Positions 10,965 to 59,028 of a DNA stretch of 64,000 nucleotides are shown here, one piece after another. The position numbers and the translations under genes are program-made. The DNA is taken from positions 63,240,001 to 63,304,000 of the forward strand of contig NC_042997.1 of NCBI RefSeq assembly GCF_006345805.1. Direction: 5' to 3'. The first letter of the stretch is position 1; each line of letters starts with the position of its first letter. A model generated the notes under the pieces. It worked only from the letters and a program-made list of their open reading frames with translations. It was not told the DNA's origin and did no database searches. This DNA is from Octopus sinensis (lineage: Eukaryota).

Positions 10965-11494
10965 AACTAACACAGTGTACAAACGACAGAGAAAATTTAT
11001 AGAGGAGAAGGTATGGTGTTATAAGTGTGACTGCTGATTCTGAGGGCTTGGAGATCTCCCATAATGTTGGCAGTTGTAGTTCACCAGAGTATGCAACCAA
11101 CAATGGAAGTAAATAGCCTCCATCTATAGGGTATACATGAATCTGACATGGAAAGAAGTTTAAAGGTGTAATTAGAAGTTCAAATGTGATTACACCTTCA
11201 AAGTCTCTACATCATGATCTGGAACGTTAGAATTTTTGCTACTCTGAAGACCAAGGCTGGATTCATCCAATGTTTATTTGCTTCTATTCCTGGTTGCATA
11301 CTCTGGCGAACTACATCTACCAACATTATGAAGGGTCTCCATGCCGCCAGAAACAGCTGTCGGACTTATAACATCATATCTTTTCCCCACTTAATTTTGT
11401 CTGTCGTCTGTGCTCTGTGTAAGTTAATATATATTTATATGCGAATATTCATCGTCTGTAAGTTTTCAGTCTTTGCTTTCTCACTATTTACAAG
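10965..11494. mobile_element. Diverged head-to-head inverted repeat element (probable PLE pLTR pair) ending at (TA)n
   Basis: About 10965-11116 is an inverted copy of about 11275-11425; the right arm contains GAAA-CAGCTG-TC (3' half of an HHR). Confidence 0.65.
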
Positions 11495-11596
11495 TATATA
11501 TATATATATATATATATATATATATATATATATATATATATAATATATATATATATATATATATATATATATATAATATATATATATATATATATA

Positions 11597-12256
11597 ATTA
11601 AAAATGAGGGTGTCTGAGAGACACCACCATGCCGGAATAGCAGTCGAAACTCTGACTATAAAAACCACGTTAAATGTTCATATCGTACCATGAGATAAGA
11701 CAGAGGGACAAAATAGACAAGCAAAAGTTATTGAATAATTCAAGATCCAGGATTTCTGGTTTTGCTTTAAATAAGCTTTACCGTCATCGGTTGAATATAT
11801 CAAGAGTACGTAAATACAGATATATATATATATATGCAGAACAGACGATATACTTACATATACGAACGTCCATACCTACATACATATGTACGTATGCACA
11901 CGGTCAGTTAAATTGCCCGCCAAAACACCCCATAAGCACGATATGGTTAAAATAAACACCGCAGTGAATATAATAACGAATTATATAAATTTATAAATGA
12001 GGATAATATCGATATTTAAATATCGATATTATCAAGTGGGAAAAAATACCGTACAAAGGTAATAATTTTTTACAATTAAAAATGAGGGTGTCTGGGGTGT
12101 TTTGGCGGGCAATTTAACTGGCCGTGTGCATACGTACATATGTATGTAGGTATGGACGTTCGTATATGTAAGTATATCGTTTGTTCTGCATATATATATA
12201 TCTGTATTTATGTACTCTTGATATATTCAACCGATGACGGTAAAGCTTATTTAAAG
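11597..12256. mobile_element. Double-headed inverted-repeat element (PLE pLTR-derived)
   Basis: Arms 11765-11932 and 12093-12256 nearly identical in inverted orientation; direct repeat aattaaaaatgagggtgtctg at about 11596 and 12074; (TA)n on the left. Confidence 0.8.
11738..11796 (-). ncRNA. Type I hammerhead ribozyme (CCGAUGA core variant)
   Basis: Minus strand: ATTCAA CCGATGA cGGTaaaGCTTatttaAAGCaaaACCa GAAA TCC-T-GGA TC TTGAAT; perfect 6-bp stem I, AUC triplet. Confidence 0.8.
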
Positions 12257-13697
12257 GTGGCGATCTTGTCTGGCATAAAGGCACCAGGTCTCACCTCTGT
12301 ATAGCAAGGTGTGAGGACACATACTTTATAGACTGTAAATTTGGAGCATCTCGTCAACTTGCCGTTTAACAACACTTTTTGAGCTAGTTTGGCGAAGGTC
12401 GAAGCTGCTAACTCTATTCTCCTGTTCATCTCCTGATAGAGTGTAAGGCTTTCCATAATTGTTGAACCAAGGTACGTAAACTCACGGACCACATCGAGTG
12501 AGTGGTTGTTGATGGTAATGATGGAGGGGGGGTCGAGACACTTTGGCCCATTACCAAAGAGCTACTAGAGCCACGTCGTGGGCAAACAGCCTCTCCCAGA
12601 CGTAAACGCTGCGGACTTTGGTCTTCGCATTGAGCTTCGACAGATTGAATAGTTTACCGTCCGACCTTTGCGTATCAAGTGTATAATTCAGCATGAGAGT
12701 GAATCAGATGTTGAACAGGACACATCGCTGTTTTACCCCACGTCGAACATCAAAGGGTTCTGAGGTGGCCTTTATGTACAAATGGAAAGACTCAAGGATG
12801 CGAAGCAGTCGAGGAGGACACCCAATCTTCTCAAGAACTTGGAACAACCCATTCCTACACACCGTGTCGAATGCCTTCGCCGAGTTAATGAATGCAATGT
12901 AGAGAGGTTGGTTCTTTTCCCTTGCAACCTCATAAGGGAGAAAAGTCCTATCCATCGTGGCTCATCCGGATCTGAAACCAGTTCGAGATCCTGGGTAGAT
13001 CCTTTCTGCAAGTTTCTGATCTCAGTCGAGAGACAAGCGAGCAGATGGCTCCCCGACGACACTGAGCCGTGACATACTTCTATAGCTGTCACAGTGACTC
13101 CTGCTTCCTTTGTTTTTATACAACGTGACAATTTTACTGTCTTTCATATCACTGGATATCTCCCCTTCCTCCCAGCAATGACACAGGATATGGTGGAGTT
13201 GGAGTAGGATGTCTTCTGTCTAACAGTTGATAACTTCAGCTGGTATCCCATCTAGTCCAGGCGTTTTTCCAGTTGGTAGTGAGTAGAGTGCTTTTTCCAA
13301 TTCCCCTACGGTTGGTGGTATGTCCAGTTCATCCATGACCGACAAACTTTCTAAGCCCTTCAGCATTGTTTCCGAAATGGAATAACCCGGAGTAATGCTC
13401 CACCAATCTCTCCATTTGCTTCAGCTGGTCTGTGATAGTCTATTCATCTTTAGTTTTCAGCGGCGCTAGCTTGCATTATGCCGGTCCTATTGCTTCGTTT
13501 ATTCCGTCGTACATTCCAAGTATGTCCTCCATGACAGACGCTAGTTGGATACATCCGCACAGTTTCTGACAGTATTCGTTGGTGCAGCGTCTAGCCATTC
13601 GTTGAGACTTGTTTCTGGCTGTCCGTATGGCTGGCAGTAACTCTCGAGTCGGGCGCTGTTTGTGCTTGATTAGAGATTCCCGTTTTGCTGTTAGAAT
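12257..13697 (-). mobile_element. RTE (BovB-like) LINE fragment, decayed RT ORF
   Basis: AFINSAKAFDTVCRNGLFQVLEKIGCPPRLL, GVKQRCVL, KLFNLSKLNAKTKVR, LFAHDVAL, VREFTYLGSTI; multiple frameshifts. Confidence 0.9.
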
Positions 13698-55845: not shown

Positions 55846-56030
55846 AGGGTGGAGATCTGGCAGAGTTATTAACATGACGGGCAAAATGCATGGTGGCAAT
55901 TTGTCCGTGTTTAAGTTCTGAGTTCAAATTTCGCCGAGGTCGACTGCATCTTTCATCCTTTCGGGATCGGTAAAATAAATACCAGTTGAGTACTGGAATT
56001 GATGTAATCGACTTAAACCCTTCCTGGAAA
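55846..56030 (+). mobile_element. SINE family B
   Basis: ggtggagatctggcagag..gttctgagttcaaatttcgccgaggtcgac..catcctttcgggatcg. Confidence 0.85.
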
Positions 56031-57602
56031 TGTCTGATCAAATTAGTTAATAGTATGCCACCTCCAGCTATTTCTAATCAAATTAGTTACTTCTATTCCA
56101 CCTCCATCTAGGTCTCTCGTCAAAGCCAATTTAACAATTTGAATCTATATTTCTTTCCCATATAGATGGAGACCCAATCATTTGGAACACCTTCAGTGCA
56201 CATGATTTCACCTGTAACTGATTTTACCTGATTTACAGACCTTCAAATTGATTGATAGCCACTGGCACATAACAACATTTCTAGCGAAATGTATACCTCT
56301 CACACATATGAAAAATATCATCCATGCATGCATATATACATACATACATATGTGTGGGGGTGCGTGTGTATATGTGTGAAGCTGGCTTGCTCAGTGGCTA
56401 GAGTATTGTACACACGATCGCAAGATCCTGGTTTCGATTCACTGATCGGACGGTGTGTTAATTTTCCGATGTAAATGAGTGAACACGCAACAGATCGGCG
56501 TCCCAGAGGGAATGTTGTTATCTTGGTCAATTATACGCCAAGAAAACCAAATAGCAGCCTTATGTGCGTAGGAAGTTGAGGCAGTACTAAGTGAATACAC
56601 ATACAGAAAACGCATATGTGTGTGTGATTGTATATATATATACATATGAGGTGGGTGAGTAGTTTGAATTATTTGAGATATTGATTGGAATTTTTATACA
56701 TTAATTATCAAGCATGACGATGTTGTGTATTCTTGAAAGAAAATATATGATTTAATTGAAAGCTTTTAGCTGTAATATTAATGAGAGAAGAAAATCGAAA
56801 TGTGCAAAAGCGTGAAAAACATATCTTTTATTTCTCTTATAATGCAAATAGTATTCAAAAACATATCATTTTAAAGAATAAATAACACAGAGTCTTTGGT
56901 ACTCATTCGAGAGAAAATTGTGAAAAAATAAGTAAAGGAAATGCATCATTGAAGTAAACTAATTATCTATATTTTCATAAAAAATAAATACTTCCTTCGT
57001 AAATAAAACGTCCACACAAAAAAATGTAAGTCGTAAATTAGGCGCAACATAAAAAAAGAATCCGGTTAAATGTATGGGTTTGTTTCAACATATTAAAGAA
57101 AAACGACAATTTAGAATCTAATTTATTTCTTGGAATCTTTGAGGGAGATATATTTGATATATAGGCGAGTCAGTATACAATCCGTTCTTCTAATACACAC
57201 ACGCACGCACACACACACACACACACACATACACACACACATATATATATATATATATATATATAGAGAGAGAGAGAGAGAGAGTGAGAGATGGAGAAAG
57301 ATTAGAGATCTATACATAGCAAATTTTTGTATATAAAGATGGATGTGGAAATAGCACAGAGACATGTTCTTGATCCCCTCAGACAGACGACAAACTGATT
57401 TTTCTTCAAACTTTTATAAGTTGCTACTGATATTCGATAAAATGACATTCATCGAAACGGATAATATTTTCTTTAAGTAATATTTTCGATCATTTATGTC
57501 AAATTCCTCTTAAATTGAAATGCCCTACACTTACTTCTGTGCTATTTCCACCTCCTTCTCATATATATATATATATATATATATATATATATATATATAT
57601 AT

Positions 57603-59028
57603 AAAGCAGGGAATATACTTCAAAACTTAAAAGGGAAAGTCAATTTAGCAATACTAAATCAAATTTCACAATATATATGTATATAATTAAGAGAAATAAC
57701 CGCCATTATGTATTTCGTTAGAGAAAGACATTTATACTATAGGGAAAAAATTCAATATACTATAATAAATACTGTTAAAAAACACTAAATTAAATAAAAT
57801 TTAAATTGACTACGCGCATTTAGTGACTATATCTTTAAATCGATACTATTAAAATTAATTCGATTTAAAAATATAGCCACTCTTCAGGTCTAAAATAATA
57901 ATAACATTAATGTATTCTCTTTTCTCTTTTCTCTCTTTTATATATATCTTAACATATAATAATTAAGTATAAAAATATACGTATCTTAACAATAAATAAT
58001 CGAATAAGATATAACAATATTAATGAACAATAAAATCATAACTTATCTTATTGAACAATTCCAGTTAACTGAAATTTTAAACGTTAAACTGAGAACCTAG
58101 CGTTGCTAAGAAATTTATCACGTGATATAAGTAATAACTATAGAATAAATAGATAGAAATATGTATTTTAGCTGTGTAAATAACAATATGTATTTTAGCT
58201 GTGAAAATAAGAAATAAACTAGATGTAATATACCGTTTACTGGAAAATTCTAAATTCTCAATAATCTAAAACTAAAATACTTAATATATATAAAATAACC
58301 TAAATTTCGATAACTTAATCTATATTCAACAATTTATTTATTCTATAAACACCTTGGTTTAATCTTGTTCTAATTATTTAATATACATTACATAATCTAC
58401 TGCTAATTTATACTCATTATACTACTACAAATTATATCCACAAAAATTAGTAGCATAAATCACAGTTTAAATATATACACAAATTAGCTAAAGTTATTAT
58501 AGAAGTAATTTAACTTATGTTTACATGTAATCTTTTGCTCATCTTAGTTTTAATTATTTTTTTATTATTAGATAGTAATATCTCCATAAATACATTTGTA
58601 CATAGTAAACAAAAATTATTTCCTATTCGATAAGATTTATGTTTTGGAATTCTTCAATAAGATAAGTTATGATTTTATTTTTCATTAATATTGTTATATT
58701 TTATTTATTTTTAAGGTACGTATATTTTTATATTTTATTATCATACGTTAAGATACATAAATTAATTTTATCATTATTTTAGAACTGAAGAGTGGCTATA
58801 TTTTTAAATCGAATTAATTTTAATAGTATCGATTTTATTATTATCGATTTAAAGATATAGTCACGAAACGCGTGTACTCAATTGAATGTTTATTTAATTT
58901 AGAATTTTTTAAATAATATTTATTATGGTATATTTAAATATTTTATTTAATTTTTTAGAATTGTTGTTCTTAAATTCCCCCTTAAATTGAAATGTCTTAC
59001 ACTTCTGTGCTATTTCCAAATCTTTGTG
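57603..59028. mobile_element. 1.4-kb AT-rich double-headed element with an HHR in each arm, between (TA)n tracts
   Basis: About 57780-58060 is inverted at about 58650-58910; HHR motifs at 57808-57890 (-) and 58782-58879 (+) with a 21-bp stem II. Confidence 0.8.

Follow-up and report, generated by a model that had tools for sequence, protein, structure and literature searches.

Insertions of Penelope-like elements (PLEs) commonly include an inverted, 5′-truncated copy (PMC8557442), and the inverted pseudo-long terminal repeat (pLTR) has been described as the shorter of the two, with a tail on one side only, palindromes at the junction, and mobilization in trans of sequence lying between pLTRs (PMC3846280). 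In vitro, a PLE protein cleaves AT-rich DNA, extends the two strands, and initiates reverse transcription internally, at a pair of sites bounding the tail; the ribozyme need not cleave for this (PMC11167929). Dual minimal hammerhead ribozymes (HHRs) ~100-700 bp apart on opposite strands were reported from Schistosoma mansoni in 2014 (PMC4209133). Here, we analyzed a window of 64,000 nt from Octopus sinensis (RefSeq assembly GCF_006345805.1, contig NC_042997.1, positions 63,240,001 to 63,304,000), AT rich and dense in microsatellites, in which an earlier reading made from the letters alone (hereafter the sequence-only reading) had listed eight units, three of them as probable, as pairs of inverted pLTRs with outward-facing HHRs. 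That reading was right that partial inverted pLTRs are known in PLE insertions (PMC8557442, PMC3846280), and the head-to-head layout, already published (PMC4209133, PMC3846280, PMC8557442), is not new. We conclude, with a probability of roughly 0.8, that the five HHR-bearing units, and probably the one at 57340, are dead, severely 5′-truncated insertions of PLEs or of PLE-dependent non-coding monomers, belonging to unrelated families, in which the inversion was made at integration. The units look like insertion scars rather than a new mobile element. Named by their listed start positions, the eight units are as follows.

Unit 18177, 18125 to 18671: head-to-head unit, arms 18177-18386 and 18462-18671, (TA)n on both sides.
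Unit 30004, 30006 to 30197: perfect palindrome without spacer, arms 30080-30137 and 30138-30195.
Unit 11597, 11598 to 12256: minus-strand 478-nt HHR monomer plus an inverted arm, retrozyme- or pLTR-like.
Unit 16480, 16481 to 16852: older head-to-head unit, central hairpin at 16669-16695.
Unit 57603, 57604 to 59028: head-to-head unit, arms 57745-58063 and 58645-58943, spacer ~580 nt.
Unit 57340, 57330 to 57560: an inverted tail tip of ~30 nt plus ~160 nt homologous to the post-ribozyme tail of the right arm of 57603, no HHR.
Unit 10965, 10676 to 11494: old foldback repeat with matched ends and a central hairpin at 11159-11202, left arm split by a miniature inverted-repeat transposable element (MITE), no HHR demonstrable.
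Unit 40744, 40744 to 40885: 142-nt foldback with an 8-nt loop and matched ends, (TA)n on the right side only, no HHR.

Inverted repeats were sought by self-BLAST with microsatellites masked; a generic inverted-repeat finder was swamped by microsatellite. An inverted repeat was confirmed in all eight units, in seven of them by masked self-BLAST at E 4e-31 or better. The arms of 57340 are merely ~30 nt long (27/30 matching), with a score equalled by 0 of 1000 shuffles and also reached by 6 of 709 window-wide segments, two of these outside the listed units. Arm mismatches number 0/58 in 30004, 3/162 in 11597, 5/210 in 18177, 5/63 in 40744, 27/275 in 57603, 24/141 in 16480, and 37/169 in 10965; three units are young, with arm divergence of 0-2.4%. 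The boundary given for 10965 was wrong, as the real unit extends to ~10676 and its left arm is interrupted by the separate MITE (score 50 versus a shuffled maximum of 38.5). TA-rich microsatellites bound the units largely as claimed, the missing ones being on the right of 11597 and on the left of 40744, and the units indeed hold no open reading frame (ORF) of note: the longest Met-started frame is 5-93 aa, and tblastn with the PLE proteins tried gave no match in the units. Several of the supposed spacers fold into a central hairpin, which is non-significant in 18177, 57340, and 57603 and trivial in 30004 and 40744. The outer 30-nt ends match at 11-15/30 positions in the five HHR units and 12/30 in 57340, versus 24/30 in 10965, 28/30 in 40744, and 24/30 in a MITE at 53459.

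HHRs were called with a type I descriptor, which in its strict form gave 4 hits versus 0.05 expected (100 shuffles). Of 19 hits from the relaxed form, 11 had a perfect core versus 0.75 expected (12 shuffles); at scores of 10 or more there were 9 perfect-core and 2 one-mismatch hits versus 0.25 and 0.08 expected (12 shuffles), and at 12 or more 7 hits versus 0 in 12 shuffles. The best motif exceeded 100/100 unit shuffles in 11597, 16480, 18177, 30004, and 57603 and always faced outward. No HHR was found in 10965, 40744, or 57340, even allowing 2 core mismatches, and HHR readings made there by eye failed the shuffle test. Both arms carry a complete HHR in 1/8 units (30004) and damaged HHRs in 2/8 (16480, 57603), and one complete and one truncated HHR are present in another 2/8 (18177, 11597). 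The claimed layout therefore stands for the inverted repeats of all eight units and for outward HHRs in five; "double-headed" is an overstatement, as just 30004 has two complete ribozymes.

What these arms represent can be read from insertions elsewhere in the window that carry the same motifs and lack an inverted partner.

3736 to 5421 (+): calibrator, decayed 3′ part of a PLE with GIY-YIG endonuclease pieces at ~4125-4549, HHR at 5134-5207, tail, and (TA)n; no 5′ inversion.
5470 to 5841 (−): second pLTR copy, 23% diverged, HHR at 5687-5760, tail-to-tail with the first copy.
27512 to 29787 (+): calibrator, decayed reverse transcriptase (RT) plus endonuclease remnant, read as a PLE, with HHR at 29607-29657, tail, and (TA)n; no 5′ inversion.
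36849 to 37132 (−): solo HHR (37079-37127) plus tail to (TA)n; no inverted partner.
42288 to 42460 (+): solo HHR (42304-42354) and its tail, with an AT-type run on either side; no inverted partner.

Because two ORF-bearing PLE remnants end in HHR, tail, and (TA)n, this series marks the PLE 3′ end, and the listed HHR units are therefore two such ends back to back. At E 0.001 or better, 1008 relatives were found for 4259-4549. In Pfam, the GIY-YIG fragment of the window reached no more than a sub-cutoff hit (E 0.049) and 1 of 13 homologues had a hit; a PDB search with P0017 gave no match. The RT fragment at 27693-27851 is 81% identical to a predicted protein of Octopus bimaculoides, and one RT fragment searched gave no homologue. 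Downstream of 13/13 HHR positions there is an AT-type run within 268 nt, and for 12/13 within 250 nt, versus a background of 0.296, the 13 positions not being independent. Upstream of the first endonuclease piece is an asparagine-rich frame (3768-4130), also present in homologue P0129 and reminiscent of the N-rich inserts in Penelope ORFs of Adineta vaga. A third decayed PLE-like RT and GIY-YIG remnant, identified by eye at 24000-25378 (+), has no HHR hit downstream. In 5062-5841, two pLTRs meet tail-to-tail with one (TA)n run between them, mirroring the listed layout; this pair also appears in the masked self-BLAST (5123-5771) and is absent from the list of the sequence-only reading.

In the HHR units, each arm follows the 3′-end series of HHR, tail, and TA-type microsatellite, and the two arms differ in 5′ truncation and in 3′ end. 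The head-to-head arrangement with a 5′-truncated inverted copy is clearest in 18177 and 11597. In 18177, the HHR is complete at 18458-18491 (+), the left arm is 5′-truncated within the catalytic core, a 52-nt tail (18125-18176) is present on the left arm and absent from the right, and the arms are not nested. The 11597 monomer has an exact terminal repeat of 19 nt (11598-11616 = 12076-12094, 19/19), an HHR at 11744-11790 (−), and a perfect, central 32-nt palindrome (12002-12033); its inverted arm (12095-12256) stops in HHR loop II, abutting a LINE-like fragment identified by eye, with no clear continuation in 12256-20000. The palindrome of 30004 is centered in a self-complementary stem I strand and holds two identical complete HHRs, at 30095-30133 (−) and 30142-30180 (+); the right arm ends ~15 nt past the cleavage site and the left continues for ~75 nt more. 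In 16480, the left HHR (16609-16637, −) has an intact core and a stem I of 2 bp, the GAAA box is damaged in the right HHR (from 16725, +), and the left arm is ~25 nt longer than the right at its 3′ end. The HHRs of 57603 have a long stem II, and each arm has its own disabling change (57811-57887, −, with G12 changed; 58785 to ~58872, +, with stem I broken); the outer tails show no significant alignment. The tail of 57340 matches that of 57603 at 115/143 positions (score 107 versus a shuffled maximum of 74.5). C replaces core U4 in two unrelated young families, at 11790 (−) and 12231 (+), the two arms of 11597, and at 18458 (+); this U4C core may be a natural active variant. In all three units with readable asymmetric ends (18177, 30004, 16480) the longer tail is on the left arm, a sample too small to judge.

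We favor a one-off inversion at integration because of the uninverted copies, the differing junctions, the apparently neutral divergence of the HHRs, and the costly HHR fold of a whole-unit RNA. Of ten HHR-bearing insertions in the window, five are inverted and five (5134, 5760, 29607, 37127, 42304) are not. The junction lies within the ribozyme core in 18177, in stem I in 30004, ~20 nt upstream of the ribozyme in 16480, and ~140 nt upstream in 11597 and 57603, and the tail extension is one-sided in 18177, 30004, and 16480. Neither of the two multi-locus families in the window (5134/5760/29827/30250 and 57340/57603) shares an inversion junction, the former having four uninverted loci with three different 5′ ends. 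In 5/5 pairs, divergence did not differ between the HHR and the sequence outside it (Fisher p 0.13-1.0). By secondary structure only, imposing the HHR fold on whole-unit RNA costs 33-78 kcal/mol, versus 6-15 in the sense arm alone (6/6 cases) and 5-12 in solo copies; in these models, the ribozyme of a whole-unit transcript would lie hidden within a long hairpin, the arm duplex outcompeting the ribozyme fold. In monomer folding of 12 segments, the HHR fold was mostly not the minimum. Searches with spurious ORFs as a stand-in for further copies of 18177 returned nothing, which is uninformative.

We infer that both strands of a TA microsatellite are cut by the GIY-YIG endonuclease and that each broken end then primes reverse transcription, at internal start sites that differ, such that the tail is present or absent. 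The template would probably be tandem pLTR copies of the RNA, and head-to-head joining of the two short cDNAs would follow, often at a palindrome or hairpin. The inversion would form once, at integration, with neutral decay afterward. Priming from both ends of the break at different start sites would account for the one-sided tails and for arms that, as in 18177, are not nested. In both 18177 and 30004 a TA-like motif marks the end of the shorter arm, a weak sign in AT-rich DNA. Self-priming by fold-back is an alternative last step that would suit the units with zero or short loops, and junction palindromes would suit it in 30004 and 11597; self-priming from junction palindromes was proposed by Arkhipova et al. 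(PMC3846280).

Several observations weigh against this interpretation. The descriptor was written for this analysis after the motifs had been seen, and Rfam listed no hammerhead among 150 of 228 matches for the window or among 29/29 matches for 27450-30200, the matches listed being microRNA-type and others below threshold. Just one of the four strict hits falls in a listed unit, the relaxed one-mismatch class is at chance overall (8 versus 8.5 expected), and the relaxed descriptor also gives a weak score of 8.7 at 53648, within a MITE. Stem I pairing across nine families holds in 42/45 cells with differing pair types, versus 20.2 with permuted partners, though this count is in part circular. 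Stem II differs by two two-sided changes between 5134 and 5760, which are homologous copies, and as covariation these are non-significant in a shuffle (110/500; two rows only). On these pairings, the five HHR units nonetheless do not show the lack of conservation and covariation that the sequence-only reading had named as part of what would refute it. The HHR of 5134/5760 is no better conserved than the rest (25/90 versus 58/267). A MAFFT alignment of 12 HHRs placed the GAAA box wrongly. No listed arm matches an ORF-bearing PLE in the window, where pLTRs are linked to ORFs only by 5134/5760 and 29607, so the listed units are assigned to a family by analogy. The junction comparison rests on two in-window families whose members are 18-23% diverged, and target-site duplications (TSDs) are unreadable because the insertions sit in TA microsatellite. 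The ends of an older MITE at 10735 match at just 17/30 positions, which makes end mismatch alone a soft discriminator.

Each unit could instead belong to a non-autonomous family moved whole in trans by PLE proteins, copied from one or either strand, as the sequence-only reading had offered beside inversion at integration. Sequence unrelated to the element and framed by pLTRs, one of them inverted, was moved in trans in A. vaga (PMC3846280), and the youth of three units, the two perfect ribozymes of 30004, and the inversion of half of the HHR insertions would also suit such mobility. We consider it unlikely, since two equivalent arms, each with a full ribozyme and the same tail, occur in 0/5 HHR units, the whole-unit RNA would pay the folding cost given above, the young arms have no strand-biased A-to-G excess (small counts), and 64 kb, a weak test, holds no second copy of any unit; everything seen in the window, like the literature, agrees with inversion at integration. 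A related idea, that at least one palindromic unit of the 30004 or 18177 type became a non-autonomous PLE derivative spreading as a whole hairpin, and that such families supply much of the near-perfect double-stranded RNA (dsRNA) behind octopus hyper-editing, is a long shot. If true, it would add a retroelement with the shape of a MITE; no such family was found described in the literature searched, a search that excluded subscription journals and Repbase/Dfam.

That the five HHR units are DNA foldback elements or MITEs in TA targets with incidental HHR-like motifs is highly improbable: their ends do not match, their motifs beat every shuffle and face outward to the microsatellite, and the same motif terminates ORF-bearing remnants. 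Real MITEs do occur in the window, and the silence of Rfam among the matches listed would agree with such an origin. For 10965 and 40744, with matched ends, a central hairpin, and no HHR, it is about an even bet; a retroelement origin is supported for the five HHR units and, through homology to the 57603 tail, for 57340, and is not shown for these two. Two adjacent independent insertions of one family are the best reading of the tail-to-tail pair at 5062-5841, which would lie in one TA run, and the unaligned outer tails of 57603 would also suit this. As an account of the head-to-head units, however, adjacent insertion, like inverted duplication after insertion or assembly artifact, has very little probability, as no TA target lies between the arms and the young arms differ by just 0-2.4%. 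Arm divergence of 2-22% excludes read artifacts in units other than 30004, which is 100% identical and lies between two ~225-nt direct repeats of 96% identity, where misassembly is possible. These repeats (29782-30006 and 30204-30428, 215/223) each hold a 134-nt tail of the 5134 family and the same microsatellite flank. Nicks in two TA runs could have produced them as a target duplication of great length, or they may reflect a tandem duplication that came earlier or two haplotypes that were assembled in tandem.

Other repeats in the window are distinct from these insertions. The MITE-type element at 10735-10946, homologous over 158/207 positions to 53459-53660, is not part of the PLE units and served as the DNA-element comparison; both copies have TA-flanked terminal inverted repeats (TIRs), the first splits unit 10965, and we take the pair to be mariner-like. 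A transposase fragment (DDE_Tnp_1_7, E 1e-9) lies at 20294-20620 (+), and a small inverted repeat at 19797-19870 is built of a 17-nt unit also found at 19019-19084. A SINE-like dispersed repeat has six copies (17046-17180, 32581-32801, 35500-35631, 44659-44792, 52561-52766, 55830-56031), and a 540-nt direct repeat occupies 49632-50173 and 51408-51935.

Because the architecture is already known, the value of these insertions is as a dataset. If the rate of 5/10 holds, PLE integration has left its record in a very large number of junctions across the genome, and these could tell dual priming from self-priming. The inverted insertions are also ready-made long hairpins. Octopus has been reported to have exceptionally many dsRNA-forming loci of great length and strong hyper-editing, and a lizard Penelope is heavily edited (PMC5625713); the share of such insertions among ADAR substrates is directly testable. 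Mislabeling of such units as MITEs by annotation, which the sequence-only reading had anticipated, is plausible: the main text of the Octopus vulgaris repeat annotation describes MITE finders and does not mention ribozymes (PMC13282606), its repeat library could already hold these families, and an HHR check might reclassify some TIR/MITE models in octopus annotation. No paper joining Penelope, hammerhead, palindrome, and octopus was found outside subscription journals.

How do these units compare with known systems? DNA MITEs and foldbacks are likewise short, non-coding, self-complementary, and TA-flanked, but they have matched termini and no ribozyme whereas the termini of the five HHR units are unmatched; 10965 and 40744 are not distinguished from them. 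In L1 twin priming, inversion occurs at integration through priming from both target ends and inverts adjacent, non-overlapping segments, unlike the present units, in which the same 3′ segment is present twice. Like non-LTR retrozymes (PMC7229834; bioRxiv 10.64898/2026.07.22.740005), which are non-coding HHR monomers thought to be PLE-dependent, the 478-nt monomer at 11598-12094 has terminal redundancy; unlike them, it forms no tandem array (one monomer plus the 19-21 nt repeat) and is longer than the reported 170-400 nt, and retrozymes are not defined by inverted partners. The dual HHRs of S. mansoni are alike in their opposite-strand pairs, in the many solo motifs ascribed to truncated PLEs, and in the palindromic helix III and extra base before helix II (PMC4209133); several motifs here differ in having a stable helix III, and two families in having U4C, and the passage on the S. 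mansoni pairs gives no detail of orientation or junction. The closest match is with insertions of endonuclease-bearing PLEs (PMC8557442; Pen2a_Av in PMC3846280), which share the head-to-head inverted pLTR, shorter at its 5′ end, the tail on one arm, the junction palindrome, the microsatellite targets, and the lack of a reliable TSD. The octopus units differ from them in that the one-sided extensions of ~25, 52, and 75 nt depart from the usual 30-40 nt and in that the direct copy is reduced to a pLTR or less, hence their MITE-like look.

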